This document shows, piece after piece, positions 10,797 through 61,900 of a stretch of 64,000 bases of DNA. Positions within the stretch are counted from its first letter, which is position 1. Every line of letters begins with the position of its first letter. The stretch is taken from NCBI GenBank assembly GCA_905178155.1, contig CAJINV010000004.1, forward strand, positions 3,187,014-3,251,013, read 5' to 3'. Position numbers and translations under genes: made by a program. This DNA is from Amoebophrya sp. A120. Lineage: Eukaryota > Protista > Dinoflagellata. The notes beneath the pieces are model-generated. The model worked only from the letters and a program-made list of their open reading frames with translations. It was not told where the DNA came from and ran no database searches.

Positions 10797-13230
10797 TCTT
10801 TGTCTTGCAGGAGTGGTTTGATGAGTTTCGGTCTTGTTCTTCACCGTGATCTCCTATGTATAGTCAGTAAGAGTAAAAAATGGCTTAAAGACCCTGCCGG
10901 TGTAGTTCTTTCTATTTTTATACCGATAGATGGCTGCTACCGTCAGGGCCAGCCCACAGGCTAAGCTTGTTACAAGAAACAATGTGAATCACAATGCGAC
11001 CAAAATAAAATAGAAATACTACATAAAGCCAGCAAAAAATAAGCGCGTGCGCGAATAAGAGAGCCCGCCCGACCGAATGTAAGAAATAAAGCTGATGTTG
11101 AAAATGAAATACACTGGCGGTTGCGTCTCTGATGAGGCTTTGTTCTGCACGGCGAAGGGAACAACATCCTCACCGGATGAACAACAAGGTTCAAGGCCCG
11201 AAGCGAAGTTCTTTTGCGTCGTCGGCGCCGCGAAAATTTCTTCTTTTCTCTCTATTATTTCTAGCTGCCTTTACGTTGTTGCTCACGTTTTTTTGTCCAC
11301 GGCACGACCTGCAACTCTTTTGATACAAGGTTTCAGATGATGGCCCGACCCGTCTCCCTATCTATTGCCGTTGTTTTTGTTACAAACGAGCTATTGACTT
11401 CAACACGTCGTGCTTGGGCTTGAGTTGTGGTAGTGAGTAGAGATGAGTGTATCCGTAGCTTCTATCAGTGGTTAGCAACTACATGAACTCGGTCAGTTAG
11501 TAGCTATGTTGATGTAAAAATTGACATGCAATCAAAAACAAAAGGAAAAACAGCGTAAGAATTCTTTTCGTACTTGAATATCAGAAGTTGTCTTACTTCT
11601 AAGACATCCACGCGGCTTTTCTGAATACCATGAACAAACCTCCGACAATATTTTCGATAGAGATAAGTTCTCCACGACAGGGGACGTCTCCTACGCACGC
11701 GGCCGTGCTACCCGTGCCATGTTTCCCCGTTTGATGTCTCGTCTCTCCGCGCAACTGCTACTGCCGACCAACTGGCAACTGCTATTGGTAAGTACTGGAC
11801 AACGAGGAAGGAGGCTTCTAAACGGGTGCGTTTTTTCTGAAGTTGTCCCTAACATTGATTAGCCTTGAGTAGTAAGTTGTGCAGTGATTGTGCTTTGCTA
11901 TCAACAGATTTAAATTCTTCAATGAAGTCCGATGCTTTTCTATCATACTTCTACATCGAGATCATTCGCCGTGCTATGTAGAGCTCCTAAACTTGTAAAC
12001 TAGAACAATCAGTACTTACCTGCAACGAACTAAAAATGGTCAAAACAGAGCGAGGTGCAATCTAGTTCTTTTTTTCTAATCAATTTTCGAAATTCTTGCA
12101 TACTTAATTCCACCTGGTTGACGAGACGGTGGACAGTACCTTGGTCTTCAGCAATTCTTCGCGTGAGTGCGCGACAGTAAAAATCCATGGATATTATGGC
12201 GTCGCATTCGCTACAAAAGTAACTAATTGATCCTGATGCTAGGTGCTGTCGCGGTTGACACACATTCGACGTGCGTCAACGTACATACTAGAAACCGGCA
12301 CACAGCATCACTTTGCTTCACGACAGGCAACACCGGAAAGAGGTCAACATGGTCATCTAGTTTTAAAAGTGGTTATTTTGATACAGGGGTGCAGGGGAAG
12401 AGTCTTCGTTATCTTTTCAAATCGACAAATTATAATCAGTATCAGATTGGTAAAAACCTCGGGCACAATTGAACTACTACCGGAGACATTTTTAACAAAC
12501 AACACATAGAAGACCACGACTAGAGAGATTCAACAAAGACTATTGACTTCTCCTTACGCATACGCTCAACTCCAGTTCACACGATGTGGCCGCACAGAAT
12601 GTTGAAAACCACACCACATAAACTGTTGTTCATCAGAGCTAATTCTTTGCTATGCAGCGTACTTAATTGAAAAAAAAGGGCCATGATCAAGCTTTCGTAA
12701 AAATCGAAATCTTCTTACGGTCGTATACTCATACTTTCTACTGCTCCTCACTCGTCCTGTAGAAGTAGGACCTAGCAGAAAGTGGAGTAAGTAAAGTAAA
12801 GCTGCTAAAAATCCTCGCAAGTTACTAGCAGCAACAAGGACTTGCTTCCTCATCGGGAGCGCCCCCGCGGAAGACCTGAAATAAGTACAACTTTCGAAAC
12901 AGAAACTTGAGAAGTAGAGCTCGATATAGGACGACTGGTGTCCTATTCCATGAAAAACGAAACCTGTACTTTCGGAAGAAGCCGAAATCTATTAGAGATC
13001 AGTGCTTTGTCAAAAACGAAAATAACGTACTTACGAGCATCATACATCGAGAGATCGAGAACCGCTGCAGTTGGCCATATCATAAAAAATTTTCTGCTAG
13101 TGTTGTTTTTATTCGAGACCGGTACGCTCTGAGACCTAAAACGCGAAACACGACGGAACTACGAAGGCCGCTGGTTATTTTGCGGGAAATTAAATACCGG
13201 GGAGCACGTATATCGCCCGCGAAACAGATT

Positions 13231-13655
13231 GCCCGTTCTCCGGGGGATCCGCCCTCGCCCCCGGGGATCCGCCCGCTCCCCGGGGGATCCACCCGTTCCC
13301 CGGGGATCCGCCCTCGCCCCCGGGGATCCGCCCTCGCCCCCGGGGATCCGCCCGCACCCCGGGGATCCGCCCTCGCCCGGGGGATCCGCCCTCGCCCCCG
13401 GGGCATCCACCCTGGTCCCCGGGGGGTCCGCCCGCTCCCCGGGGATCCGCCCTCGCCCCCGGGGGATTCGCCCTTGCCCCCGGGGGGTCCGCCCGCTCCC
13501 CGGGGTTCCGCCCGCTCTCCGGGGGATCCGCCCGTTCCCCGGGGCGCCGCCCGTTCTCCGGGGGGTCCGCCCGCTCCCCGGGGGGTCCGCCCTCGCTTCG
13601 GGGTATCCGCCCTTGCTTCGGGGGGTCCGCCCTGTTCCCGGGGAAATCTGCCCGG
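13231..13655. repeat. GC-rich minisatellite, 19-20-bp unit (CCCCGGGGGATCCGCCCTCG-like), about 21 copies
   Basis: GGATCC recurs at 13245, 13265, 13285, 13304 and onward. Confidence 0.9.
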
Positions 13656-13658
13656 CTG

Positions 13659-14480
13659 AGGTAGTGCGTACCACGAGGGAAAGGGCACGAAAGACGACAC
13701 AAATTGGGCCAGGGGATTCCGGAGAGGATTTTGGAGTTCCCGGAGGAATCCTCTCCGGAATCCTCTGAGGAATCCTCTCCCGAAACCGAGGCAAAACCGC
13801 CGGGGGAAGGGCGCGAAAGGCGGCCCAACTGGGGTCAGAGGATTCCGGAGAGGATTTTGGAATCCTCTGTGGAATCCTCGGCGGAATCCTCTCCCGAAAT
13901 CGTGGGTGGCAATGCCATCGGGGTAAGGGCGCGAAAGACGGCTCAAATTGGGCCAGGGGATTCCTGAGAGGATTTTGGAATCCTCTGAGGAATCCGCGGA
14001 GGAATCCTCGCCCGAAATCGAGGTAGTGCCGTCGGGGATCGGGCGTGAAGGACGGGCCAACTTGGGCCAGAGGATTCCTGGGAGGGTTTTGGAATCCTCT
14101 GCGGAATCCTCTCCCGAAATCGAGGTAGTGCCGCCGGGGAAAGGGCGCGAAAGACGGCCCAACTTGGGCCAGAGGATTCCTGAGAGGATTTTGGAATCCT
14201 TGGAGGAATCCTCTGGGGAATCCTCTCCCGCAATCGAGGCACTGCCGTCGGGGAAAGGGCGCGCAAGACGGCACAACTTGGGCCAGGGGACTCGCCAGGG
14301 GATTTTGGAGTCCTCGGAGGAGCCCCCTGGAAAATCCTCTCGCCAAATCGAGGCCCCCGTGCGTAGCATCCGCGGAAGGCCCTCCGAGGCGGACCAAATT
14401 GGGCCAGAGGACTCGCCAGGGGATTTTGAAGTCCTCTGACGAATCCGCTGGGAAATCCTCGGGGCAAATTCCGCGGGAAA
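13659..14480. repeat. Tandem repeat of 102-126 bp, about 7 copies, with an internal 12-bp GGAATCCTCTGA-like subrepeat
   Basis: The AA(A/C)TTGGGCCAG-like anchor occurs at about 13701, 13827, 13945, 14059, 14161, 14275 and 14395. Confidence 0.9.
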
Positions 14481-14990
14481 TGTGCGCCGGTTTGCCGCGC
14501 CTCCAAATCCGGCGGCAAACAGCACAGGACTATGCCACTTCGTTCGTTTTTGTGTTGTTTCGAAACGCTTCGCCAAAGCAAACACAACCACGGGCGGACT
14601 GCGTCGCCACAAGAGGCAAATCGCGTGACATTTACAAGGCCAATCACGACGGGAGTACTCTCCGGCGGCCGCGCTGGTTTTTGAGGCTACACGAGCGGAA
14701 ACGGTTGCTTTTTAGGTCCCACAGCGTACCCTTCTCTTTTATTTCTACAACAGAACGGCACGCGCTGAGGCCCAGAAAAATCCATCGCAGCGCCCTGATT
14801 GGGGTCAAACCTTGCGTATATACCCGGGCGTGGTGCCCTCGTGGAACGCCTTTTTTTAGGCTATGGAAACATAGCAATTCTACTGGCCAAAGCCCACCAT
14901 ACCATGCGGATTGGGAATTCGTGGCAGCACGGATTTCCAATCCGCTCTCTTTGCTGTTCTTCATCTCTTTCCGGGGTCCCGGAATTTTCG

Positions 14991-15400
14991 CCTTCCGAGA
15001 TTTCCCGGGAACTTGTGCAACTCGTGCAACTTTTGCACGTTTTTGTTGCAAATCACCACGGTACGGCCGAGTTGCACGGCGAGTTGCACGGTGCAACTCG
15101 CCGTGCAACTATCGCAACATTTCGCGCAGAACCAGGATGGTATGGCCCTTCCGAGATTTCCCGGAAACTTGTGCAACTCGTGCAGCTTTTGCACGTTTTG
15201 CGTTGCGAATCGCGATGGTATGGCCCGAGTTGCACGGCAAGTTGCACGGCGCAACTCGCCGCGCAACCATCCCTACATTTTGCGCCGAACCAGGGCGGTA
15301 TGGGCCGCGTTTCGATTCCACTTGTGCTAATCGCTCAACTTCGGCAGTTTTGTTGTGCGAACCACGGCGCGCCCGGTTGCCCAACTTCCACGCGGGACTG
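14991..15400. repeat. 156-bp tandem repeat (2 copies plus a degenerate third) rich in TTGCAC/GTGCAA motifs
   Basis: CCTTCCGAGATTTCCCGG(G/A)AACTTGTGCAACTCGTGCA at 14991 and 15147. Confidence 0.85.
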
Positions 15401-15950
15401 CGCTGGCGCATGTGGGCAGTATTTCCAGCGCGCGCGCGCTGGCTGCTGCGCATGTGGGGGATGTGTCCACTGTGTCGCGCTGAGAATGGACATGCGCATG
15501 TCGGCTGTGTCTCCTCTTCGGTTGGTTGTTGTTGGTTGTCAGTTGAGTTGTCGTTCTGGCGTATGGGCAACCAACTTGAAAACTGACGCATTGCCAACGA
15601 GACAACTTGACAACCAACCCACAACCACCACCGCCGTCGCGAACTTCCTCGGCACGCCCGCCCGAGTATCACGGCTCCGCTTCCGGGTGTCAATGTGATG
15701 GCGCGCGCGGGCAGTATTGCCGCTGCGCCTCTCTTTCCCTTCGGCCCGCGCCACAACACTATTGATGGGGACGCTTTGGGGCCCGTTCGCCGCCGCCGCG
15801 CGCGGGCGCCCCAGTGTGGTGGGCCTTGTTCCCCGCCACTCTGCCTTACGGTTCGGGCCCTGCGGTTGCGGCCCCTCGGGCGGACGAGCGGACCACCCCC
15901 AGAACAGTCACCAACGAGGGGACCGGCCAGGCGCTCAACAGAAGCAAGCG

Positions 15951-16770
15951 GCGCAATGGTTAGGTCGGTGGTGAGGCCCGCGGGCGCAATAGCTGTGTTC
16001 AACAAAAGCCCCGCATTGGTTAGGTCCGTGCTGAGGCCCGCGGGCANNNNNNNNNNNNNNNNNNNNNNNNNNNNNNNNNNNNNNNNNNNNNNNNNNNNNN
16101 NNNNNNNNNNNNNNNNNNNNNNNNNNNNNNNNNNNNNNNNNNNNNNNNNNNNNNNNNNNNNNNNNNNNNNNNNNNNNNNNNNNNNNNNNNNNNNNNNNNN
16201 NNNNNNNNNNNNNNNNNNNNNNNNNNNNNNNNNNNNNNNNNNNNNNNNNNNNNNNNNNNNNNNNNNNNNNNNNNNNNNNNNNNNNNNNNNNNNNNNNNNN
16301 NNNNNNNNNNNNNNNNNNNNNNNNNNNNNNNNNNNNNNNNNNNNNNNNNNNNNNNNNNNNNNNNNNNNNNNNNNNNNNNNNNNNNNNNNNNNNNNNNNNN
16401 NNNNNNNNNNNNNNNNNNNNNNNNNNNNNNNNNNNNNNNNNNNNNNNNNNNNNNNNNNNNNNNNNNNNNNNNNNNNNNNNNNNNNNNNNNNNNNNNNNNN
16501 NNNNNNNNNNNNNNNNNNNNNNNNNNNNNNNNNNNNNNNNNNNNNNNNNNNNNNNNNNNNNNNNNNNNNNNNNAGGCGGGGGCCCCCTGCGCGTGGCCAG
16601 TGAAAGAGAGAGGCCGGCGGGGGCCCCCCTGCGGGCGGGCCGGGAGGCGGGGGCCCCCCGGTGGGGAGGCTACCCAGCGGGCGGGAGGGCGGGAGCCGGG
16701 GACGGGGGCCCCCCTGTGGGGAGGATACCCAGCGGGCGAAAGGGCGGGAGGCGGGGGCCCCCTGTTTTCC
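15951..16770. repeat. GC-rich repeats flanking an assembly gap (N 16047-16573)
   Basis: A 60-bp-period duplication (GGTTAGGTC..TGAGGCCCGCGGGC) precedes the gap; AGGCGGGGCCCCC and GGGAGG.TACCCAGCGGGCG repeats follow it. Confidence 0.75.
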
Positions 16771-17606
16771 CCGACGGTATGCTCGACGCAAAAATAGTAA
16801 CCTTCAGCGTGCCATCGCGATTAAAAGTCTGGGCCTCAGCACGTATCGGTCTCTTCTACAAATACTTCCTAGCAGGTTGTACGCACGCTATCTTCCATAA
16901 AAATCAATTGTATATATAGACGTCGTGCACGTGCAGCTCTCTACCGCGATAAGCAGCTGCTGACCCAAAACCGGTCAGCGATTGCTGTAAGCGCAGAGCT
17001 TATCATGTTGCGTATGTGATATTTCTATTTCTTCAAGAAAATAGAGTTGTATAAAGTTCCATATTAACCGCAAAAACTAGTCCGATCTAACAAGCTACGA
17101 AATCACCCAAATTCGATCACGGTTCGTGATTTACTGACATATCGATATTATCTCGTAGTACGAGGATTGCCTTGTGCTTTTGCTTCTCGAGCAACGTTGG
17201 GATTTGATATATTAATATTTCTTGTTCGGGATAAAAATTGGCATCGTCTTCGGCGCAAGTGTTTCTGGTACCGGGCGTGCAGTCCTATATTCGGTTTTTG
17301 ATTGGACTGGGGGCCCATTGCCATCGAGGATCGACGAGAAATAGTACCACATCACTGCACCACTATTGTCCGCTTGTACCGCCCGGATTCTCGAAGCGCG
17401 TTTAACCTGACAGTGGTCGTATAAATCAAGATCTATTCTCTCATCTTCAAGTCGCTCAATCTGAATTGATTCTTGTTTTTCAATCGGGTTTTCCTTCGCA
17501 AACATGCAACTTCGACTTCCCGTTCTCATGCGGTGAATGAATGTGAACAAAGAACATTCCAAGAAACTAAATAACAAATTTCATCGTCCAAAAAAATGGT
17601 ACTTGT

Positions 17607-21339: not shown

Positions 21340-22332
21340 GATCGTCAGTCGTACTAGTGCGCAGACGCAAATCTTCTGGGAGGAGGTATCTGCTTTCTGT
21401 CTTTACAACTTCGCAGTCAGAGGTTGTTGTACTACCACGGATCTCTGCACAGATAGGGCTTCATCTCCCGATTCTCATCTTCGACGTAACACAATTTTGC
21501 GATGCTGATGTTGGTGAAGATGGTGTTGCAGGACATATTCGCGTTCTCCTCGAGCAAGATGATGTGCATGCCACGCATGACTGGTGCTGCGTCTCCCCAA
21601 CACACTAAAAGCGAGCCCGTGCTTTTCGTAGTTGCACCACTCCGCGTCCGGTGGTACTTAAGCTTTTTTCCGGTGCAGCGCTTGGCGTAGTAGAGTGAAA
21701 AAGAAAAACCTTGAAGAAACGTCCTCCAGCAATGTTTTTCCGGTTGTTGTAAACAAGGCAAATATAACACCTTGATGTGCAAAAAATACACAACAAGAAA
21801 ACAACTATGCGATCGAGCGATGCGATTCGATTTCGAAGCACGAGGCTCACATAAAAAGATGAAAACATTGACTCAAAAAGTGGTCAAAGTTCGGCACAGA
21901 TTTAGATTTCTGCGCTCGTATTAACACGCTCGCTCTACTTCGGCTTATTAGACGCTCAGCAAAAATCCGCTCTTGGTCTTATTCGTTTCATCGATTACGT
22001 GAGGTGTCTAGTTGTACTCCCCCCAGAGTTTGTTATCGATATGCGGTGCTAGTCGTTCACTGGTTGAAAGCCAAGAACAGAGAAAGATTATACACAAAAC
22101 TGTCACTGCCACAGGATCTTCTTCTTCTCGTTCTCGAAAAATCGTCCACACGAAAATTGATTTATGTTGCCTATGGCATTTATTCTTGCTCCACAAACAC
22201 AACAGACCCGCAAGTGTGTGTAGTATTCTTTACCTCGTCCAGCGGTGCTAGTTTAATATGCTCTCTAGTTTAGCGTCATGTACTCTCTTTCGCTACTCCA
22301 GTATTCTTATTCTATTGAAAGCCGTCTAAGCG

Positions 22333-24024
22333 TCATCCGTGCCCGAACAGCCCGATTTTTGCTTGTACCGTTTTTGGTTTCCGTGCGGAGAGCTGCTCCA
22401 ATAATTCCTGCTGCCGAACCTGCCAGGCCTGCTGCGCCGCACTGTTGCCCGAGGATGAAACTGTCGTCGGTGTGAGAAACAGATCTTCCTGCATCATCAA
22501 ATCGCGCAGGGATTCTCGTGTAGCCGCCGGTGCGCCAGCAGCAGCAGCGCCTGGATAGTTTTTGTTCAGACCGTCTTCTGCTATTGACGGTAAAGAGGAA
22601 TTACTACCGCTCCCGCCGGGGCCGCCGTACCTCTGAGCAGGAGGTACCAGCGCGGACGCGGAGCCGGGAGCAAGAACTTATGGCAGTGGCAGAAACTTTT
22701 TCCTTCAAAACTTTTTTTTTTTTCGCCATGCGCATCACCCAGCGCGAGAAGTAGATATCGTCTCGGCGGCGACTATCTCACGCGTGGGCGCTGCGGCTTT
22801 ATGCCCATGTCAAATTTGCTGGTCTGCATGCAGGAACAGGGCGAAGTTTTCCGCCTGTTGCGTCCCGGGTCCGGTCCGTGACGGCAGGCGCAGGAGCCGG
22901 ACAAACACCGTATGGCTTGGCGCTGGTCGGATAAAAAGAATTATGCAACCAAGCCGAGGCGCGACGGCCCCAATGACTTAGGCGCCGCGGATACGCCATG
23001 ACTTCGGGTTTTGGTCTCGGGCCAGTGCTTTTCAGCCCCGGTTGTTTTACAAAGAGCAAAAGGATGTTGCGTCTCCGGAAGCAAACAAAAGGCCCCAGGG
23101 GGTACCCCAGAGGCAACCCCAAACCCCCCCCCTTTTTGGGCCTCCTCAGAAGGGTACTCCCCATTGGTATCTCCACGAAGGGGGTTCCCCCAAACCCCCC
23201 CCCCTCAAGGGGGGGCCCGAGCCCTCTTTTTGCTTCCGCAAGTTTTCAGCTTTTCAAAAGCGATGTCCGGAAAAATGATCACGCGAACCCGGTAAGAATG
23301 GGTCTTACACAGCCGGGTCCGGAATAAAGTGGGCGACTTTATTGGCTTCTGCGCCTACACTGTCTGCGCCTCGCAGAGTACTTTGGAAGCAAGGGCGCGC
23401 CAGGTCCCGTGGCCATGCTCGTTTGAGACTGCCGCCCTTGTGCGATCCGTCAGACTTGCGCCGCTATATCCTGCACTACCTCTCGACGCGCCAAGGCCGC
23501 GGCGGGGGACCTACCTGCCGCGCACCTCTAGGCCAAGGCGCTAGGGACGAATCTGCGACGCAGCCGACGGGCAAGCCCGCTCTGCCCCTGTCTTCCCACT
23601 AGCCAGCCCAGCCTGCACAAATAGCCGCCCACTGCAAGCGGGGCCCATTCACGTCCGAAAAGGTGTCGGGTTTTCATGATGGGTGATTTGCATGTGCAAA
23701 AAAAAAAAAGTTTTGAAGGAAAAAGTGAAAGAAGTGAGCAGGAGGTACCAGCGCGGACGCGGAGCCGGGAGCAAGAACTCGTCCCGGTGGTCGTAGCAGA
23801 TTGGTTCCGTCGTAACTGCTTCCACTACTTCCGACGGCGATGACCTCCAGATCTGGCGAGTGCATGGCCGGGCTCACGTCGTAGCAGAAACTGAGAAAGC
23901 ACTTTTCAAAAGTCGCCTTTGCGTCTTCCTCGCGGAGGGCCGCCTGCCGAATCTCGTCGTTGTGTGGCACGGAGTGGTGGGTAGTGGGGATGCTCGATCT
24001 AGAGGATGAAAATACGGTGCCCAT
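22333..24024 (-). CDS. Hypothetical 196-aa protein (MGTVFSS N-myristoylation-like start) interrupted by a 1056-bp insert
   Basis: 24024-23735 joined to 22633-22333 gives 591 nt with no internal stop: ...ALVPPAQRYGGPGG...AKIGLFGHG*. Confidence 0.65.
22679..23734. mobile_element. 1056-bp GC-rich non-coding insert with 47-bp subterminal inverted repeats, flanked by a perfect 45-bp direct repeat
   Basis: Direct repeat 22634-22678 = 23735-23779; inverted repeat 22695-22741 / 23680-23726; left end TATGGC. Confidence 0.8.
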
Positions 24025-24512
24025 TTTATTATTGCTGCCGGTGGGGGTGATGGTCTGGGGCTGCTCCTTCTAGCGGTTCGTTGCAAGCCGGTGCTGTGTA
24101 GTCTTTGGAGAGCAGCCGAGATCTTGATCTACTCCACAAAGAAACAACAAGCGGGGACAGCCGCCTCTACGCTGGTACAACTACCCGATGACTGTGGTAG
24201 ATAGGCGAACGAGGGCACTGGCAAGGCTATACGACACAATGAGAGTCGTGTGCGTGCATCGACCATCTTGGCTTTCTCGTGTCTCACGAATCGCTTAAGG
24301 CCAGCGGCGGGGGAAGAAACAGAGATGATCCAGATCGTGCAAGCAGCTCAAAACAACAATTTCCCTCATAGACACGAAGATCATCGGGTGCTGCGGGAAA
24401 GATCGGCACCATCTTCCACTATCCTGTAAAGAACCTCCTCTGCAGAAGACGAAGGTTTGGACCAACACCTTAAGACCGCTGTACTCATGCAAAATGAACT
24501 CCTCCGACGAGA

Positions 24513-26915
24513 TCATCGTCCCGCTGCATGAATGCAGCTAGAAACAGCAGTATGAGCCGCAGGCTGCTTTTTTGAAGATTGACAATCGCGCAGCTTTTTC
24601 TGTAGGAAAGGGATCACAAAAATCGCATTACACAGTTCCATCAGCGTGGCAACTATGTAAGGGTCGACCACAAATTCCAAATTCAGTTTCCGCAAAAGCG
24701 CCCCGAGAGAACCACCTGAACCTGGGATCGTCCTCGACACGAGGACCTCACGACCATTGTCCCGCACAACTACCTTCGTCTTCAAGTCAAATACTTTCGC
24801 GAAGAACGACGGCATGAGAATGGACGGCAGGAGCATCAAGTTGCTTTGCGCCGTCGCGAGCGCGCCCTGTCCAAGCTTCATGCGTTCCGCCTCCTGCTGA
24901 AACGTGCGCTGCAACACATCCCCGCCGAAGTGCAACATGTACAGCAGATTGTTCACCCAGAGCACCCGGGTGGGGTTTTCTGCAAGGTAGACATTCAGAT
25001 ACGCGGCAATCTCCACCAGGGCGTGCGATTGCAGTAAGAAAACCGCGCCGCGGTTCAGAATGGAGTTCTTGCAGCTCTCATTTGCACGGTCGTCGGACGA
25101 AGAACCGGAAGCCGAGGTAATATTCGGCGCCTTGTCTTGATGTCCCGTGAACGTTCGCAACACCGGTATCAGAAGCAAGCTGTTGACGATCAACGCGACG
25201 CGCGCCAGCCGCTCGCTGATGCTGTCTGAGCCGCCGCCCCAGCGGTTGTCGCCGAATTTTTGACGGTAGTACATCGTACTGACTGACCCGACATACGTCG
25301 GCAACGTGCGGCAGACCATCAGGAGGCCGAGAAGCCGAAGTTTCCGGCTCTCCGCAAAACCCGGGAAGAAGGTTTGGAAGGGTTTGTGGAAATAACGGTT
25401 GGTGAGGCTTGTTTTGGATACGGCAGTTGATGCTGAGACTTGGTGTTGGTCGTTGTTATTTCTCCTGCTTCCCGTACCCGTGGTGTCTACATCGGTCGCC
25501 CGATTCTGGTCCACCTCGTGTTCGTGATGTTGCTCAGCATCTTCCCGTATTTCCGCCTGCTTCGTGCCTTCTCCCAGGCGGATTGAAAAGTTCTCAGCCG
25601 TTGCCGCGGTGAGCAAATTCTTGCTCGAAGTGCCCGCCACTTTTCCACTATAATTGCCGTGCTGTTTCTCGGTCGTCTTTTCGGTTGCTGGCTCACCCGA
25701 AGAACTACCCGTGATGGACCCGCCCTCCTCCGCACGACTTCTTGTCCGCAAAAACAGCACCGCGCTGGCAAGAACGGCGATCGCCCCGTGGCAGAAGTAG
25801 CTCAGCTCCGGCTTGTCTTTATACGGGAAGAATGTTTGCCCGGCAAAATTCCCCAACAACCCCGTTGCCAAGGCGACGCGAAACACGATCTGGTTTTGGT
25901 TCACCGCTTCCAACGAGCCGTGGCCGACGAGGTCGCCGAGCCACGCGGAGCACGCCCGGAACACGCTGGGAAACACGGTGGTGAGAATTAGTTGGTGTAA
26001 GACGAAAATCGGCTTCATGAAGTTCCGTGCCTTTGTAGTTCTCGTCGGTTGTTGTACTTCTATGCTTGTGGTCTCGAGCCCGTTCTGACCTTCTTGACCA
26101 CTGCAGGTGACCGCCAGCACCATTTTCGCGACCCCGAGAATGAAAAAGCCATTGACCATCGTCCGTACTCGGCTTTTGTCCAGGCGCCGGTTCAACATCG
26201 GGGTCACAAAAAAGTCCAGTAACGTACAGAGCTCGGATATCACAGGAAAAAAGTGTTACAGTTACACATTTGTTGGAGTTTCTGCATCTGCTCGACATGG
26301 CAAACAAGACCTGTGATGCGCAAACTATAAAGGGAAAACACGAAGGAAGTGAGGTTGGCAAGCATCTCCTGCATGACAGAGTTTATCTGTCTTGCTTGTC
26401 TCCCATCAGAGTGTGTAACTGTAACACTTTTTTCTCACGATATGGGAAATTTGGGAGGAGAAATTCGCTACATTGGTATGTTGGAGTTGCTGGGCCTGGG
26501 CATCAGGGGCGGGACGGGTTGAGGATGTTCTTGTCGTTGCAGCTGTCCCACCACTTGTTGTCGTGGACGACGCTCCTCCGTTCACGACCTTGTACAGCAA
26601 GTTCGTCCGGCTACTGGCCAGCAGTCCCATCCCGAAAGCGTTGATGCCACGGACCAGACAGATCAGCCGCAGCCGGTCTTGACGGGCCTGGAGGATTTGA
26701 TGTTGTTGCTCTCCTTTTTCATCAACATCTTCGCCTGTGTCTTCAGGGACCACCACATTCGGTGATGTCGTGGGAACTTTCTCTCGCCGGGCTTGCAGCT
26801 CCTCGAAAGGCCCTTCTTCACGCCCGCCCTGAGCTTGAGCAGGGTTTGATGTTGCAACATTACCTCCCAGTGAGTTCTTGAGGTTAGGGCGGCGTTCGTG
26901 GGCCCCTACTCGCAT
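24513..26915 (-). CDS. MFS-type multi-pass membrane transporter, 2 exons
   Basis: Two hydrophobic halves with a long central loop. Exons join across the introner 26238-26442 as FSSQIS(Q/E)LCTLLDFFVTPMLNRRLDKSRVR. Confidence 0.65.
26238..26442. mobile_element. Introner family E
   Basis: TIR TATCACAGGAAAAAAGTGTTACAGTTACAC / GTGTAACTGTAACACTTTTTTCTCACGATA; TSD TCGGA/TGGGA (1 mismatch). Confidence 0.85.
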
Positions 26916-33165: not shown

Positions 33166-36100
33166 CTAACTGCAGTCGCGCAGGTACAAATCCAACCTTC
33201 TAGCTCTACCCAAACCAGCATAACAAATTGCAAGTTTCTTCTCTGGCAATAAAATTTGTGATGCAGTTCATACTAGCACGATACTTTTGCAATGCGTACC
33301 TAGGAAGATTCAGCAATTCGGTAATCATCTCGTCCGAGCAGTCGTCCACGCGGTCCAGGTACAGTTTGGTCGCGCAGGCGGCCATATCAAATGCAAAAAT
33401 GTCTCCTGGGTCTGGAAGGTTCTAAACTTGTAATGCTGTCTCTGGATTCTGAAAAAATTTATATTGCATGACCAGCAAGAGAGCTCCAGTTTGTGCTACG
33501 CGGAAAGGGAATTTCTCATGCGGCAGAGGCATCACAAAGTCCTCTAAAAATCTGTGATGCCAGGGCATACATCAAAGACGTCACGGGCCATTCAAAATAT
33601 GCATGACAAACCTGGTATTAATCTTCCAGACCCACACATTTGTGCATTTGATAGGCCATGGTCGCCAGCCCAACGCCGGAGAGGTAAAGATAGAACGCCG
33701 AGCCCCAGCTCTCCGTGTCGTAGTCGTGCGCTTTCGCGGCCGCATTGAAGCAGTTGGCGGACCAATGGACGAGGGCAACCACGTTCAGCAGTAAGAAGGC
33801 GAAGCTGAGCAGCAGAAAAGCCGGCCGGACAAGGTGCTGCTTCTCGACGACAACGGTGCGCAAAACCCACTGCTGGAATTCCGTCCGCGGGGCCTTCGAA
33901 GGGTTCAGGATGGGGAGGAGCAACAGAACTGTGGACAGCAGACCGAGCAACAGGAAGACAAGGCCGGCGGTCGCCAGTGAAGAGGCGGCCTTGCAATCCT
34001 TCGGAAAATCTTCGGAGTCGCCGGCAAGGTCAACAAGCTCGCTGTACGAGTACGCGACCTCTAGCTCGTTGTTAATCCAAACGGAAGTGCCGTACAGGTT
34101 AAAGTCTGAGGGGTATGGGACCCTCAAACTACGCTACTATACATTCTTGTCGTTACATGGGTTTGTGCTGCAAAACTAGCAAAAGTGAAAGGGGGGCGGC
34201 GCCTGTTGCGCTTTTTGAATTACAGGCTTCTTTGGCGCAGATTCTGATTCTATTTGGCGCGTCGAGAACTTCTTGTACTTGTCACGCGAAGCAGCAGCTT
34301 CATCATGCTACTAGATATTGATGGCAATTTTCATTTTGCATGCCAAATCATGCCACAGTTGAGAATGTAACGTTAACGTTTGAGAATCCCATAGGGAGAT
34401 CTTCAACCTTGTTCCGCCAGCCGCACTACTGCTCGTCGTGGTGATGCTCGTTCCCGAACTGCTGCTCGTTCCCGAACTGCTACTCTGGACTGACGATGTT
34501 GTTGTTGACAGGGGACTGCAGTAGCCCCATCCACCTGCAACCTCCGAGCACCATATCCCTCCGCTATCACCATCCGGATTCCGGCAGTAATTGTGGTCAG
34601 CACTGTAAACGTGATCCCACATAGAACCGCGCCAGGTGGCGCAAGGACTGCCAGTTCTGGTCCGCGTCTGACACCCCCGGTAGTCGCGTCCGATGCCGGT
34701 CATGCTCTCGTCGCAGTTTCCGTTCAGTAAGCGGGTCGTGGTCCTTAAAGTCCTCCTCGTGCGGATGTGGTCAGTCAGCGTCCCCAGCGCCAGCCCGCTT
34801 TCCACGTTCCCCCCGACCAGCACGATGAAGCAGATATTCCGTGAAAATTAACCAGTTGTCATGCAAAACATGTAGTAAAATCTGTGTTTGTCATGCAAAA
34901 AGTGAATGGGGATGGCTAATTTTCAGGGAATAGCAGAGCAAAAAGGCGACCGATGCCCACACACCGCCCAGCACGCTGATGTACTTCAAGTTACCGACGA
35001 GTGCAACCTATGCATAAAAATTCTTGCACAAGTATCGTCTTCGTCCAGAATAGGGAGTTGATTGTGAAATACAAAAAATTTTGGGAGAACGATTCTCATG
35101 GTGCTTTTATTACGATCAAATATAGATTTCTTTTTATTCTGCACCTAATACTACGACGCACGAAAATTTACCTGCTGCTCTTGGGTCATTGCGTCGTGAA
35201 TGGTCGACTGCTTGCTGGGCGAGGCCGGATCCTCCACTGCGACGGCGTTTTCGCCACCACCAGCGGTAGCTTCTTGTTGTGCGATCACGATCATGGTCGC
35301 CATCCCGGCAGCTCCTTGTTCCATCGGCACACTCAGCTATAGGAGGGCACAATTCGTCCTCTTCCTCCTGATCTACAAGGCATGAGCAGGAATAGACATG
35401 TCAGCAAGGGAAAAAGCTGCGCAACTGTTGCATGACAAATTCAGATTCACCTACGGTTGTAGTCGTGTTCCTTGGGCTGCAGGAGCACGTCATGCGAAAA
35501 GTACCAAGAGGGAAACAACGCAAAGACAAAGCGTGGATGTGGGTTTGGCTTTTTTCATGAGAAGAAGAAATGTGGTAGAGCAGGGGGAGTTCAAGTTGTG
35601 CACTCTCATATTAGACCTGCGGTGTTGACCAGCATGCTCGGTTGTTCGATGACCTTCGCCACGCCAGCGTCTTTGCCGGTAACAGTGGTAGCAGCCACAC
35701 CTTGAATGCCGTCCGCCGTTAGCAGTACCGGTGGTTGCACAGAACCAGCAGGGTCGGCGGCAGAGGGATCAGTTTCTTCCTTGTGGTGCTTCTCGCGGTT
35801 TTTTTGCTCGTGCTTTTTCTTCTTGTACCCCTTGCGATTCCATCCAAAATCGGCTTGCACCTGCAGTGGAAGCTTGCATGTTAAACTTAATAAAACAAGG
35901 AACGACACGATGCTGCAATCATCATCACTCGCCACATCACTACCATGATCTCATACTACATTACAACTTTACAATCTCAACAAGCCCCTCCTTGTTTGTT
36001 CACACCAGGAGCCAAAAAAGCCGACTCCTACCTTCGCCCCCGAGCAGTTCCGGTAGCAGTACCTAATCGAGCCGAAACACGCCAAGCCGGCCAAGACGCA

Positions 36101-38187: not shown

Positions 38188-39554
38188 GGTTTTTAGGATC
38201 CTATGTCACAATCTTCTTGGGCAACGAGCATGGGCTCAACACTTACTGAGGGGGCGCAGTGGGGTGTGCGTGTGTCTTCCGCAAGCGCAACAAAAAGAAA
38301 AACAATGTAGTGCAAGCTTCTTAGACAAAAAAAAAACTATTTCTTTGTCAGGCGAGCTTGAAGAGCTGCCCTCGTCCTGTCATGGTTTCCTGAATGTTAA
38401 TTTCAAGTAGGTCAGTTCTACCACAACCGTTAGGGTCTTTAAATGTGTTCAGGATTTTAAATATTTTTTGTCATGTATGGGATCCGTCCAAAGCGCCGCG
38501 CCTCCGACCGGGGTCGCCACGTTGGCCGCACAGCGCGCCGCCATGATCTGAGCCAGGGTCTTGCCGCTTTTCAAATTTAACACCGAGAAATCCGCACTTT
38601 TTTCGAAAATGCGACTGCACTCTTAGCCTGGGGCCCCTACCATGTGGCCCGAACACCTGGACCACCAGCGGCCAGGCCCCGAGACTTCCGGCCGCCGCGG
38701 GAGCGGCGGCCGCGCGCCCACGACCGCTCGCGCCGGTCGGAATTCCGGCCTGGCGCCGCCCGCGCCGCTCGGGGCGCTTCCGGCCGCTCGGGCCCTTGCC
38801 GGCGCTCCGGGCCGCTGCCGGGAGCGGGACGGGCTCGAGCGGCGCAGCGAGCGGCCCGGGCCGCTCGCGCCTCTTCGCTGCGTTCGCGGCGCCACGGTGC
38901 GCTCGGTGGAGCGGAAGGCTTCCAGGGGCGCGAGCGGCACCGCCCTGCGCCCCGGCGCGGGGGCGGCCGAGCGGCCCGGACGGCTGCGCGACGGCTTCGC
39001 GTGCGCGACAATTTATTTTTTTGCTGCTACACATTAATTTGAAAAAACGAGCGCGATTTTCTTCTATCTCGCTCTCATGCCATTTTGCGAATCCGAAAGA
39101 ACGAACCGACGCGCGCGCGTGCCCCACCATCTTTGTTCCCCATGTGAGCCAGACTAGAATAGTCTTGCGTCACTGGAATGTGGTTAGCCATGCAAAATCA
39201 AATGTAAGTTTTCATTTTGTCAACGTATTTAAAGCATCAAGCGGCTGTGGTAAACTGACCTACATAATTAATTGTCTGCGCTGGATTGCAAAAAGAAAAA
39301 CAAATACGAAAATAGCGTATAGGTACACATGCCCGCCGTGCACTAAGCTGCAAATAGGTGCTAAATAATCCAAATTTTGCACAGCGAACCACAGATGTAG
39401 AAGAAAGCTTGTGTCTTTACTTATTTTCCTGCTTCTCGTCCGGCTCAGGATCCGCTCGTACCAGCCTCGTCGCTTACTGTGTTCTCTCACGGTCACTTCT
39501 CTCTGAGTCAAGAAGAAACCCACATGACGGAAAGGGTTAAACGGGGCGTCCCAC

Positions 39555-41550
39555 CAAAGGCCAAACCGCGAAATTTCAAAAATTTATTCTTGTTGCGAAA
39601 AAAAATCCGCGAAATTTGAAAACTTTATTTTTGTTGCATCAAAAACCGAAGGTCTTCAGACTTTCACGTCTGTTGTCCGAGCAAATCCGACAACTCCAGT
39701 GCCCTGCGGCTCAGAGCTGCTAGCACAGGTGGGTAGCTTTGCTTTTGAAGGGACGTCCCGTCAAGGGTCAAATCGTCTCCGGAGCTGCCAGCGCGGGTGG
39801 GTCATTTTGTCCTTGACGGAACGTCCCACCAAGGGTCAAATCGTCCCCGGAGCTGCTGGAGCGGGTGGGTGGTTTTGCCCTTGACGGGACGTCCCGTCAA
39901 GGGTCAAATCGTCTCCAGAGCTGCCAACACAGGTCGCCGGTTTTGCCCTTGCCGGGACGTCCCGTCAAGGGTCCAATCGCCTCATGATCTGCCAACACGG
40001 GCAGCCGGTTTTGCCCTTGACAGGACGTCTCGTCAAGTGTCAAATCGTCCCCGGAGCTGCCAAAGCACCTGTGCAGTTTTGCCCTTGATGAGACGTCCCG
40101 TCAAGGGTCAAATCGTCTCCGGAGCTAGGAACACGGGTGGACGGTTTTGCCCTTGACGGGACGTCCCGTCAAGGGTCAAATCATCTCCAGAGCTGCCACA
40201 ACGGGTAGCCGGTTTTGCCCTTGACGGGACGTCCCGTCAAGGGTCAAATCATCTCCAGAGCTGCCAACACGGGTAGCCGGTTTTGCCCTTGACGGGACGT
40301 CCCGTCAAGGGTCAAATCATCTCCAGAGCTGCCAACACGGGTAGCCGGTTTTGCCCTTGACGGGACGTCCCGTCAAGGGTCAAATCATCTCCAGAGCTGC
40401 CAACACGGGTAGCCGGTTTTGCCCTTGACGGGACGTCCCGTCAAGGGTCAAATCATCTCCAGAGCTGCCAACACGGGTAGCCGGTTTTGCCCTTGACGGG
40501 ACGTCCCGTCAAGGGTCAAATCATCTCCAGAGCTGCCAACACGGGTAGCCGGTTTTGCCCTTGACGGGACGTCCCGTCAAGGGTCAAATCATCTCCAGAG
40601 CTGCCAACACGGGTAGCCGGTTTTGCCCTTGACGGGACGTCCCGTCAAGGGTCAAATCATCTCCAGAGCTGCCAACACGGGTAGCCGGTTTTGCCCTTGA
40701 CGGGACGTCCCGTCAAGGGTCAAATCATCTCCAGAGCTGCCAACACGGGTAGCCGGTTTTGCCCTTGACGGGACGTCCCGTCAAGGGTCAAATCATCTCC
40801 AGAGCTGCCAACACGGGTAGCCGGTTTTGCCCTTGACGGGACGTCCCGTCAAGGGTCAAATCATCTCCAGAGCTGCCAACACGGGTAGCCGGTTTTGCCC
40901 TTGACGGGACGTCCCGTCAAGGGTCAAATCATCTCCAGAGCTGCCAACACGGGTAGCCGGTTTTGCCCTTGACGGGACGTCCCGTCAAGGGTCAAATCAT
41001 CTCCAGAGCTGCCAACACGGGTAGCCGGTTTTGCCCTTGACGGGACGTCCCGTCAAGGGTCAAATCATCTCCAGAGCTGCCAACACGGGTAGCCGGTTTT
41101 GCCCTTGACGGGACGTCCCGTCAAGGGTCAAATCATCTCCAGAGCTGCCAACACGGGTAGCCGGTTTTGCCCTTGACGGGACGTCCCGTCAAGGGTCAAA
41201 TCATCTCCAGAGCTGCCAACACCGGTAGCCGGTTTTGCCCTTGACGGGACGTCCCGTCAAGGGTCAAATCGTCTCCGGAGCTGCCGGCACGGGTGGGTGG
41301 TTTTGCCCTTGACGGGACGTCCCGTCAAAGGCCAAACCGCGAAATTTCAAAAATTTATTTTTGTTGCGAAAAAAAATCCGCGAAAATTGAAAACTTCATT
41401 TTTGTTGCATCAAAAACTAAAGGCTTTCAAACTTTCACGTCTGTTGTCCGAGCAAATCCGACAACTTCATTGCCCTGCGGCTCAGAGCTGCTAGCACAGG
41501 TGAGCAGTTTTGCCCTTGACGAGACGTCCCGTCAAGGGTCAAATCGTCCC
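39555..41550. repeat. Array of 24 x 68-bp units, each with a perfect 26-bp palindrome, bracketed by ~177-bp direct repeats
   Basis: Unit TTTTGCCCTTGACGGGACGTCCCGTCAAGGGTCAAATCATCTCCAGAGCTGCCAACACGGGTAGCCGG; starts every 68 bp from 39737 to 41301, with an extra unit at 41507; direct repeats 39555-39731 and 41326-41502. Confidence 0.95.
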
Positions 41551-42431
41551 CCTCGGCTACCCACCCACGCCTATCCCTATTGTATCAATAAGAGCAATCG
41601 ACCACTTTTCCCTTGTTCGCGCGACGCTCTTCCGATATACAAGCGGTCGCGCTGAATAATGGAAACATAAACATCGACTTGGGGATGAACCACAGCATTT
41701 ACAAATATCTTCGTTGCCGGAAATGAGATGCTCCGGCTGCGCCGCCGTGTCACCCATTTGCATTCTTCAATTGGCGTTTGTGCATCTTCAGGAAAGATAA
41801 CATTTTACATTCACTAAACTCATCCCATCGTCCGAAAACAAAGTTCCAGTTTCTCATTTCATTTTCTCTAAAAAAATCAGTGGCATCATCATCAATTTTA
41901 TCGTATCGAAAAACTCAATATCACTTACAACAAATTTTTATCAAACCGGATGTGAAGTAGACAAAGGGTATTTCTGGCGATGAAACTTAGCAAAGCGACA
42001 TCTTCAGTGAATAAGACTTAAGTTCATTCTGTGAATAAACTAAAGTTCATGCAATAACATATCTCGAAAGTTGCGCCAAGCCGGAAACCATAGATGCGAA
42101 AATTCAAATTCTGTCTGTGCAAAACCAAGAAGAAATAAGGATTAAGATAGGTAAGTAAAGAAAAGGAGCAAAAATCCAGTGATAACTGCGACTGCCAATC
42201 TTGTAACTGTAAGAACCTGAACTCTGCAATCAAATCAAAAATGTACTTTTTTGACCACTAGGAATCACGCAACGAGGATGCAAGCCTCTAGACGAAGCAC
42301 GTCTCACTCTTAATCTTATGCCTCCTTTACCTGTGCATGTGATGTTCACATTATCCACACCACATATCAAGCCCACACACATTACTTTGTTCCACCGTTA
42401 AACAACACAGGACCGTGGTGAAAGTCACAAC

Positions 42432-48686: not shown

Positions 48687-49753
48687 CTAATCTCCGTTTC
48701 GGCGTACGTTGTGGAACATTTTCCGATTGTTGCCGTACCCCGAGTACAGGTTGCCGGGGCTGCCTGCCGGTGGAAGGCTCCAGGGATCTGAGTATCCTGT
48801 GCAAAAGTATTGCACTCGTAGTAATCGCATTCATGCATTACAAATCTGGTTCCCAAGGCAAATTAGCATGACAAATTCCATTTGTCACGCTGAGCGAATT
48901 TGTATTGCAATCACTACTAGTACGATACTTTTGCAGTTCATACCGACTTGCCCTTCACCACGTTGTCCTCCCGAATCACCTCGAGGGCGAACCTGATTTG
49001 TGAAAATTATTGACAGACTTTTCTAGACAGCAATTTTTGTGGTGTCATGAGTCATTTCATAATTCTTGTTCAGCAGCACAAGAGTTAGAAGAACTTCTAC
49101 ACGCCGTTGGGCGGTGCTTTTAACGTTTTGTTGAACAAGGAGAGACTTTACACACAGGCACACATGATTATAGATTTCAACGTGCACCCATTGTGCAACA
49201 GTCGAACTTCTACACATCACGCAAACAATCTTTCTACCCTCTCTTCCGATCCTGCTCCAGGCGTTTCAGGTCGAGCTTGCGGATGAGTCCATCCGGCCAC
49301 TGCGAATACTTCGAGGACGGCGACACTTTGACCGACGGGTGGGAGAAAGAGACTTATGAAATGTAAAAGTGTCTGGGTCTGGAAGAGTCATGCTGTTTCT
49401 GCATGACACAGAAGGTCTGGCATGGCAGCTCTAGCATCACAGGTTTCGAGAAGCTTCCGCAATGCTGAATCCGCATGACAAATCCCTCATTTTGGCGACA
49501 GAAAGTGAGCAGCTTTTGCGTGCTATGCATCAGAGATTTTTGTGTGTTCTGCAATGCGCATCACAAGTTACATCCTTCCAGACCCAGACATTTTTGCACT
49601 TGATAAGACTTGCCGATGGAAGATTTTCTGCTTCTGCGCCTTCTTCGCGGCGGGACCCAGGGTGTGCGGGACTTCGATCGAATCCTTCTTCTCTGCGACA
49701 TGCAAGCACTTGTGCAAGCTGCGCATCTCCGCTGCGTGACTATCCGCGGCCAT
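48687..49753 (-). CDS. Small 4-exon hypothetical protein (~136 aa) invisible in the ORF track
   Basis: MAADSHAAEM...FHRQVS|FSHPSVK...QDRKRG|FALEVIRED...GKSD|PWSLPPAG...RRNGD* after removing two introners and one GT-AG intron. Confidence 0.6.
48793..48942. mobile_element. Introner family B
   Basis: TATCCTGTGCAAAAGTATTGCACT / AGTACGATACTTTTGCAGTTCATA; decayed TSD CTGAG/CCGAC. Confidence 0.8.
49355..49605. mobile_element. Introner family D
   Basis: TATGAAATGTAAAAGTGTCTGGGTCTGGAAG / CTTCCAGACCCAGACATTTTTGCACTTGATA; TSD AGACT. Confidence 0.9.
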
Positions 49754-58971: not shown

Positions 58972-61900
58972 TCAGACACTGTTAAAGTTGTCTTGTGACG
59001 CGTTTCCTTTACTGGTGACACGCCTGCTGGATTTCTGCCACGTGCCGTCGTTGGCGGTTTCCAGGTTGCCGCTCACCTGCGTTTTCAGGCGCGCGAAGCT
59101 CTGGCGCATCTTCGAGCCCCGCAGGTGGTTGTGCGCCGTGGCGGTCGGGTTGGCCGTTGATGATGCTGATGTGCCAGAGAAATCAAGAGGACCAGAAAAA
59201 GCTCCTGCTGGTGCCGCATCCCCTGAAGAGGACATCACCGCGACGTCTTTGATTACAACGGTTTTATTGTTACTTCGGGTCTTTTTGGGGTACTGAATGA
59301 ACGCCGGCTGGTCCTCGTTGTGAAACATGCTTTTTCGCGGTTTATTTGTTCCAAAAATCATATTACCCCCCGACGCCGATTGGATGGAGGTCACCGACGA
59401 ACCTGCCCCAGGTGGAACAGCTGGTGCACCTCCAAACTGCACGACTGGGGACAGGTGCACAAAGGTGGAGCCCCGTCCAGAAGTGCTGGGGCTTCGATTG
59501 ACGTTGATTGCACTGGTGCTCCCAACTAGTACACCTGCGCCACCTTGATGCGGATCCCCCTGGTGATGTTGTTCTACCGCTTTCACCCGCGCGTGCTCCA
59601 TCTCGACCTGCTTCCGTGCGAGCATCATCATGGTCCGCAACTTCCGGGCCTTTTCCGTGACCGCGAGGCTATGGGAGTGCGCGGTGTCCAGGTCGGGCAG
59701 GCACTTGGCCTTCTCCAGCGACTTCGCCTCCTCGTAGTTCGCCCGGGAGATCTTCACGATGCAGACTTCGTGCGAAGAAATCCACGCGGAATACGCCGGA
59801 GTGATCCTCTGGTACCCCTCCGCGCCGGTGTCCCCCCGCGGGACCAGCGCCTCGATGTTCAGGACCGCGTTCGAGCCCAGGTCCTGCTGGAACTGCGACA
59901 AAGGCAACGCCGAGCCGTGCGAAAACACGTGGTGGTGCGCGATGCGCACGACCCCGGTGAGCACGATAATCATGTCGTCGCAGGGTTTGCCGGCCTGCAG
60001 CAAAAAGTCCTCCTGTTCCGGCAACGCCGAGTGGCTGTTCTTCTTCACGCGCACCTCGACCTGCGCGCCCGTCGCCAGCAGCCAGCGCAGCGCCTTGCCG
60101 CCGATCCACCCCTCCCCGACCTGCCGCATGTGCCCGGTCTGAAACCGCCACGGCAGGCGGCTTTTTAGCATGCTGGTCCAGGACGCGCGAGAAGAACTAT
60201 GGATGTGTCAGGTTTGAAATCGTCAGAGTTGAATAAATAGTTTGTCATGCATAAAATGGATGCCAGTTGGAGCCCAGTTTTCAATTGGCGCATGACAAAT
60301 TTTGGCGATGCCTAAATCCAGTTTGTGATGCTGTTTGGGTAAGGAAGACGCCTTTTGTCATGCTACTTTAGCAGCTCTATTTCTATCCCTCAACAGGCTT
60401 GCAATCTGCCTCCCTTGCCTACTCTGCAAGACAGGCACTTTGTGGGTTGCATTTTATGCATCACAAATTATTTCAACTTTGACGATTTCAATCCTGACGC
60501 TTCCATAAGAACCTGCTGCGTCGTGGTCGGACAGCAGTTCTTCCCGGCCAACTGAACCTTCCATCCGAGTCTTATGAACTGCAAAAGTATCGCACTCGTA
60601 TAAATGCATTACAAATTTCCTCAGCGTGAAAAATAAAATTTGTAATGCTGATTTACCTTAGGGAAAAGATTTTTTGTGATGCATGATTACAATACGAGTA
60701 CGACACAACTTTTGCACAGGATAAGTCTTACTCACGGCCAGTTCGTGGAACAGTTCCGGCCCGGGGTAGTTCTCCCGCAGGTGCGCACACAAGACCGCAA
60801 TCTCGAAGGGCGTCAACGGACTCTCGGCCAGCGCCTTGTTGAAGACGCGCATGCTCATGGGGTCCACGTTGTAGAAGTGTTGGCCACCGCGGAGCTTCGA
60901 GGCCGGCTCGTGGACCATCTTCGTGAGTTCCAGCAGCTGCTCACGCTCTTCCAGTAGTTCATCCCCTTGCGACGCTTGACTCTTCATCGCAATGCCGCTG
61001 CCGCTAGCACTGCTGACCGTGGAATTATGGTGTCGCCCGGTCATTTCCGACATTGTCTGCAGCTCGATCTGTGAGGCGTTCTTTCGTTTATTGTTGGCAG
61101 ATTTGGTATTCCTCTTGGATCCCGAGTTAATTATATCGTCTGCTGATGTGCTGTTGTTTTCCTTGTTATCTACGCTTGTTCCAGCAGCAGCTCCAGTAGT
61201 CGCAGCAGCACCAACGGTTGTTCCCCCTTCCTCGTCGCTGCTCGAGGTTTCCATGCTGAGCGCGCCGTGCAGCAGCGTTTTCGCGACGTCCTCCTTGGCT
61301 TCGAGCACCTCTAGGGGCAAAGCCGCAGACTCGTCGTCGAACTCCTGGCCGAGAATCTCCTCGAAGATGTCCTCTTTGGAGAAGACGCCGATATGGCGTT
61401 CTCAAATGTTACATTCTCAACTTGTCATGCAAGAATGGGAAAAGTGAAAGGGGGGAGGTTGCACCTGTAGCATTACAAGTTCCGGACCGATTTAAGTGGT
61501 GTCTAGCCCTTCGCAAATTTGTCATGCGAAGCAGCTTGAACTTGATCGTGTGAATGATGATAGTGTTTTTGCATGACAAATTCATGTAACAGTTGAGAAG
61601 GTAACCGATTTGAGAACCCCATAGCCGAGTAACTTTCGCGTGTCCTCCTCCACGACCAGCGCGAGGTGCGCAATGGTGTATGACAGTGCACAACTGCCCC
61701 TCCCCTTCATTTGTCATGCAAAATACCCAGCCCATCCTTTGTCCCTTGGCACTGAATGCATGACAAGTTCTGGTAGCCCAAATAGCAGTGCAATCCAGTA
61801 GACATTATTTGTCATGCAAAACCGGCACTGTTGCTGATGCTTGTATTGCCGTTCATGCTATACAAATGAGGGAAAGGGGGAGTTGTGCAATGTCATATGG

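Follow-up and report, generated by a model that had tools for sequence, protein, structure and literature searches.

The introners of the Amoebophrya A120 genome carry a TAT terminus, inverted repeats and a direct repeat of 3–5 bp, and the accessible sections of the study that describes them report that no transposase was found in A120 (Farhat et al. 2021, PMC7789003). According to the same sections, Amoebophrya has tens of thousands of introns without GT-AG ends and U1 snRNA was undetected; the intron analysis itself was limited to lengths of 40–1000 bp. The accessible text and tables of a later survey cover 58 A120 families, 36 of which list a TSD, of 2–11 bp, while 22 list none (Gozashti et al. 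2025, PMC12130899). Families of about 630–1620 bp occur among them; family 38, of about 810 bp, is given as “5-bp TSD, TA/TA termini” with a TIR of about 50 bp, and the legend of Fig. S8 states that some introners add or remove amino acids. As for the joining of a single end, the available part of Varadarajan et al. (2016, PMC5041404) reports what usually follows when an integrase inserts one end only: one junction is normal, the opposite end is truncated and a long stretch of host DNA is duplicated.

We looked at a 1056-bp insert in a 64-kb stretch of the A120 genome (the whole stretch of DNA analysed, hereafter the window) that interrupts a minus-strand gene, the public model of which is P0003. 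The features discussed below are the following.

22333–22674, minus strand: exon 2, residues 93–205 and stop, from the letter-for-letter map of P0003.
22634–22678, no strand: sense-downstream copy of the 45-bp duplication, exonic except for its first 2–4 nt.
22675–23748, minus strand: modelled intron of 1074 nt in the GT..TT placement; a shift of 1 or 2 nt gives GG..GT or TG..AG.
22679–23734, no strand: whole non-coding element of 1056 bp, from repeat comparison and a Pfam scan of its frames.
22679–22694, plus strand: intact 16-nt introner terminus with a TAT start, matching the ends at 7317, 61679 and 8305 at 9/10 bases.
22695–22741, no strand: left arm of the inverted repeat, with the T12 tract and the CATGC-N3/4-T-N-ACCC motif.
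23066–23253, no strand: central region of G/C-run hairpins that includes a 16-bp repeat spaced by 71 bp; its folding does not surpass that of shuffled sequences.
23680–23726, no strand: right arm of the 47-bp inverted repeat, with the A12 tract and the motif as CATGC-N3-T-N-ACCC.
23727–23734, plus strand: 8-nt filler that replaces the absent 16-nt terminus and resembles the adjacent bases.
23735–23779, no strand: sense-upstream copy of the 45-bp host duplication, about 31 nt exonic and the remainder in the modelled intron.
23743–23748, minus strand: candidate cryptic 5' splice site GTACCT, the only sense-strand N-T-A in 23690–23790 and one of three placements.
23749–24024, minus strand: exon 1, residues 1–92, from the letter-for-letter map of P0003; its last base is 23749, 23750 or 23751.

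An earlier note on this DNA had pointed to a perfect 45-bp duplication flanking the insert. The 45 nt at 22634–22678 are indeed repeated exactly at 23735–23779, without possible extension in the repeat comparison of the window, and the longest exact repeat obtained by chance, in 200 base shuffles of 21500–25000, was 15 nt. Neither the 45-mer nor the insert lying between its two copies was found a second time in the 64-kb window. We also searched for other long duplications beside TAT/ATA ends and, outside two excluded tandem regions, found no exact repeat longer than 16 bp at a spacing of 50–4000 bp.

The subterminal inverted repeat described by the earlier note was recovered at 22695–22741 and 23680–23726: the two 47-bp arms are 89% identical around a 29-bp exact core and contain the A12/T12 tracts, which are mirrored in the repeat, 25 and 33 nt inside the ends. 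The left arm is predicted to pair with the right arm with a probability near 1 over its outer 36 nt. The G/C-run inverted segments proposed at about 23090–23225 also exist, but these central hairpins fold no better than shuffled sequences (z of −1.3 and −0.7), which ruled them out as a special structure. Likewise, the insert is “GC-rich” relative to the window (57.5% against 51.6%) but not relative to the flanking exons (59%). That it holds no credible gene was borne out by the Pfam scan, in which none of the 16 frames scanned, out of 22 listed stop-to-stop frames of at least 45 aa (the other six lie at the ends), gave a family. Other searches were negative as well: Rfam gave no match in the window, the viral contigs scanned gave none to the insert, and all nine matches (9/9) of the inverted-repeat core to metagenome contigs were short chance matches, in contigs of 31–35% GC with unrelated flanks.

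The window is crowded with elements of 100–320 bp that start with TAT and end with ATA. We retained 18 of them (33 scan rows, of which 17 were kept and 16 dropped for weak arms or cross-element pairings, plus one added by hand). The 5-bp duplication is perfect in 15 of these 18 and diverged in three; since they have the TAT...ATA form with 5-bp duplications, the window elements fit the description of A120 introners in the accessible sections of PMC7789003. The left end of the insert starts with TATGGC, which is an ordinary TAT introner end. The earlier note had assigned it to the termini of a “family A”, and this stands for the first six bases; beyond them the end is nearer to other elements, its first ten bases matching the ends at 7317, 61679 and 8305 at 9/10 positions, and the 218-bp elements at 7317 and 61679 are the nearest overall. 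As a background, 47 of 118,414 positions outside the listed elements match any of the 36 ends at this level, the insert's own end being included in that count. The motif CATGC-N3/4-T-N-ACCC, which was chosen after inspecting the ends in which it occurs, has four occurrences in the window: one in each arm of the insert and one in each of the elements at 7317 and 61679. Judged by its sequence, the insert is a long, non-coding relative of the TAT...ATA introners of the Amoebophrya A120 genome.

The right end is different. As already noticed, it lacks GCCATA, the complement of the left TATGGC: 16 nt separate the inverted repeat from the left end of the insert, against 8 nt at the right end, where the outer 16 nt are gone and 8 nt of filler stand in their place. 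The intact form of this end is deduced from symmetry with the left end. The 8 nt of filler and the next three bases form a copy of the preceding ten bases with one insertion, and filler templated by local sequence is typical of end-joining repair. In the sense orientation of the host gene, the damaged end is the 5' end.

Compared with the A120 introners, as far as the accessible sections of PMC7789003 describe them, the insert shares the TAT terminus, stem-closing inverted repeats, a modelled junction that is non-canonical, a position in coding sequence and the lack of a transposase gene inside (0 Pfam families in 16 of the 22 listed frames). It differs from them in that one terminus is absent, the direct repeat is 45 bp instead of 3–5 bp and the gene model keeps 27 nt. 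More precisely, the inverted-repeat motif starting with TAT is found at the left end only, its “N7 then AAA” part has no exact match, and of the inverted repeats expected at both intron ends the inner 47 bp pair while the right outer 16 nt are absent. The insert seems to work like an A120 introner yet departs from it in two defining features, the two termini and the short repeat, and is thus filed as a variant. Its modelled intron fell outside the published intron analysis because 1074 nt exceeds the 40–1000-bp range.

The table of 58 families in PMC12130899 makes the size of the insert unusual but known, and makes 45 bp no listed family trait. As the earlier note had it, 45 bp is far longer than a typical TSD (2–11 bp in the listed A120 families, 5 bp in the neighbours). 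Family 38, which is Ginger-like, has Copia/Gypsy integrase-like ORFs in about 810 bp, whereas the 1056-bp insert has no Pfam match in the frames scanned, Pfam being less sensitive than RepBase; this comparison, like that with the other long TIR introners, is with the descriptions in the survey's table. Candidates for intact relatives among the published families are fam74 (49 copies, about 1060 alignment columns, a TSD of 5 bp) and fam169, an undamaged copy of the insert being expected to measure about 1064 bp. Consensus sequences, the ends of the insert and the host gene identifier were absent from 13 of the 14 supplement files of that survey. Some of its introners add residues, as far as its accessible text describes; in the gene model considered here, residues are added through a one-off long duplication and not through the normal geometry of the family.

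The three features of one-ended integration, a normal end, a truncated other end and a long host duplication, are all found in the insert, which in this resembles the retroviral integrations in the available part of PMC5041404, where a long host duplication also replaces 5 bp. Those integrations arose in cultured cells under drugs or with mutant ends, and their duplications are often hundreds to thousands of bp; the insert, by contrast, is natural, non-coding and apparently spliced, and the likeness is one of anatomy. The accessible part of a study of Polarella and Symbiodinium (bioRxiv 10.1101/2020.10.14.339549) describes introner-like elements with splice sites in a flexible register, taken from the duplication or flank, as may be the case here; those elements use GT/GC/GA..AG sites and 3–8-nt duplications, whereas no GT..AG placement fits P0003. 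In the literature outside subscription journals we found no account of a one-ended Amoebophrya introner or of the true splice register, and the accessible part of PMC12312487 held nothing relevant to the insert.

We then come to the host gene. Removing the insert and one 45-bp copy, 1101 nt in all, gives a stop-free frame of 196 aa on the minus strand, which reproduces the ORF that had been proposed. The product this implied, an exactly restored 196-aa protein, differs from the public, transcript-based model P0003, which is 205 aa long. Its exons match the window letter for letter (residues 1–92 at 24024–23749, residues 93–205 at 22674–22336), and nine residues occur twice as a 9-aa tandem duplication, meaning that 27 nt of the 45-bp duplication are kept. 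The modelled intron is 1074 nt in every junction placement that gives the protein; only three junctions yield it (TG..AG, GG..GT and GT..TT), none of them GT..AG. The junction has an overlap of 1 nt, although 45 nt of homology were on offer. According to our computation, a GT..AG removal of 1072 nt at this locus would cause a frameshift and lead to a form of 123 aa. The control was the model next to it, P0004 (1002 aa), which is reproduced by the window once its four normal introners are taken out, each of them (4/4) exactly, as the element plus 5 nt. The accessible methods of PMC7789003 state that A120 models were built from aligned transcripts and that the longest ORF per locus was retained; the 205-aa form may therefore be a minor isoform beside the 196-aa or 123-aa form. 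The extra residues sit in a low-complexity stretch and are likely tolerated. P0003 is a singleton for which we found no clear orthologue, a homologue search returning the protein itself and one weak match (E of 6.6e-4), and no Pfam family was detected in it. The protein starts with MGTVFS (24007–24024, minus strand), which we take to fit the N-myristoylation motif MGxxxS.

The explanation that we favour, and regard as reasonably probable, is that a relative of the introners was joined by one end and that host repair sealed its shortened end 40 bp off register, the public model then removing a non-canonical intron and leaving in 27 of the 45 nt duplicated. The intact end would have been joined by a transposase or integrase acting in trans; this analogy with integrases is plausible because a TIR-flanked A120 family has Copia/Gypsy-like ORFs, according to PMC12130899, but no transposase was found in A120 in PMC7789003. 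End joining would have closed the other end after its trimming, adding a short filler templated nearby, and sealing off register would have turned the usual 5-bp duplication into one of 45 bp. At the RNA level, the stem would bring the element ends together, the 3' cut would remain 2–4 nt beyond the ATA of the intact end, and a cryptic site, most likely the GTACCT at 23748, would take over from the lost 5' site. Since 15 of the 18 neighbouring elements carry perfect 5-bp duplications, the 45-bp duplication is most likely a one-off, the product of a one-ended insertion finished by host repair and not a family trait. The earlier note had hesitated between a giant introner relative and an aberrant one-ended insertion; the two combined fit the locus, only “giant” being overstated in view of the A120 families of about 630–1620 bp.

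An identical end state would be left by a history in two steps, a normal insertion with a 5-bp duplication followed by a break at the right end; in its repair, a template switch to the left flank would have removed the terminus and added a copy of 40 further host bases. The arms of the insert have five mismatches in 47 positions and the 45-bp copies have none, so that the duplication could be younger than the element; the arms, however, also differ in neighbours with perfect 5-bp duplications, meaning that the mismatches give no age, and two events are required. We consider this history unlikely. Long duplications of variable length are a trait of non-LTR elements. The damaged end is the sense 5' end, as would be expected if an RNA copy had been made by a reverse transcriptase in trans, a target-primed process that leaves the 3' end precise, shortens the 5' end and adds bases to it, and makes a long duplication. 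Three of the 58 families besides fam135 are classed as non-LTR in the tables of PMC12130899. Against such a copy, neither junction has an A-tail, the A12/T12 tracts being mirrored within the inverted repeat, and the precise end halts exactly at the terminus of a DNA element; as for a family that would always make long duplications, no listed A120 family has a TSD above 11 bp. Either version seems improbable to us.

The assembly may also be at fault, through the merging of two versions of the site, one filled and one empty, or the 205-aa model may be a product of the annotation pipeline, in which longest-ORF selection may favour rare junctions, the host protein moreover being a singleton without a clear orthologue. 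But a transcript with a 27-nt partial repeat requires that the DNA contain both copies, the modelled junction is not GT..AG, is not guided by homology and would not be expected from a canonical aligner or from template switching, the A120 assembly was chimera-screened with long reads, and a haplotype merge would leave the filler unexplained; we give an artefact of either sort little likelihood. The 45-mer could also be a terminal direct repeat of the element itself, its identity being perfect and its copies sitting at both ends. This we judge highly improbable: the 45-mer is in-frame coding sequence of which the host frame needs one copy, it is absent elsewhere in the window, and the introner terminus starts directly after it. 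Misassembly and a 45-mer belonging to the element, the two refuting cases that the earlier note had named, are both disfavoured, and the insert is a real, probably single, damaged copy of a known kind of element.

By analogy, the origin of the insert is an ordinary one. The locus is chiefly of value as a natural experiment: thanks to the 27 nt left over, the splice register of A120 introns becomes testable. A normal introner gives the same mRNA whichever of at least six positions in its 5-bp repeat is cut, and its cut position is therefore unreadable. With a 45-bp duplication this ambiguity goes, and the homology provides a shortcut, which is left unused in the modelled transcript; an overlap of only 1 nt with 45 nt of homology on offer argues against removal guided by the direct repeat and against template switching. 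The acceptor of the P0003 intron lies 2–4 nt beyond the intact ATA end, at a distance that is also possible for normal copies. The 4-nt acceptor placement goes with the GT at 23748, and with a donor at 23748 only two acceptor positions keep the frame (206 and 205 aa). These data suggest that cutting is set by the element ends and not by the direct repeat. Although predicted with a probability near 1, the stem stops 18–24 nt short of the cuts and so leaves their positions unfixed. We considered a hairpin ruler for the donor and found it unsupported, the stem-to-cuts total being 42 nt against 37 expected, with no pairing predicted past the stem.

When the register of the GT..TT placement, a single case, is transferred to normal copies, their introns start with N-TAT, that is N-T-A, which is self-consistent. 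We tentatively propose, as a possible but doubtful generalization, a splice rule for the non-canonical introns in which the 5' cut is placed one base before TAT (at N-T-A, the GT-A donor in relaxed form) and the 3' cut four bases beyond ATA, by distance, without AG or direct repeat. In the tallies of PMC12130899 for A120 families 1, 18 and 2, about two-thirds of donors are x-T and of acceptors A-x, as expected if the aligner moves the junction along a 5-bp repeat. We simulated this with a toy model, which shifts the junction toward GT..AG in a random 5-bp repeat under an assumed scoring rule; it gave 71% x-T donors and 71% A-x acceptors, compared with 69% and 68% in family 2 (9716 copies); from this agreement, the true cuts may be poorly reflected in the published spread of dinucleotides. 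If the rule is true, the published “unprecedented variety” of splice dinucleotides would mostly result from the aligner sliding in 5-bp duplications of random sequence, and tandem peptide repeats could arise through one-ended insertions. A single locus proves no rule; a genome-wide set of such copies would test the register with existing data. Within the window, the 5-bp repeats of the introners at 26238–26442, 34114–34393 and 48793–48942 differ, and their mRNAs would reveal the cut position; for the gene holding the element at 34114, this register control found no protein of 264–2000 aa.

Other features of the window were recorded. At 33212–33300 there is a short remnant with a TATGAACTGC-type end at 33272 and without a clear partner or duplication, possibly another damaged introner. 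Between genes, 39541–41551 comprises two 240-bp direct repeats (91%) around about 23.5 copies of a 68-bp unit and looks like an LTR-like or minisatellite-bearing element. The region 13074–16800 is GC-rich, with layered tandem repeats (20, 114, 158 and 55 bp) around a gap of 527 N, and begins just after GCCATA. Finally, the gene at 58972–62912, which is that of the P0004 control, encodes PF01595 and PF00571 domains in its 1002 aa and has an A25 homologue; it is presumably of the CNNM type.
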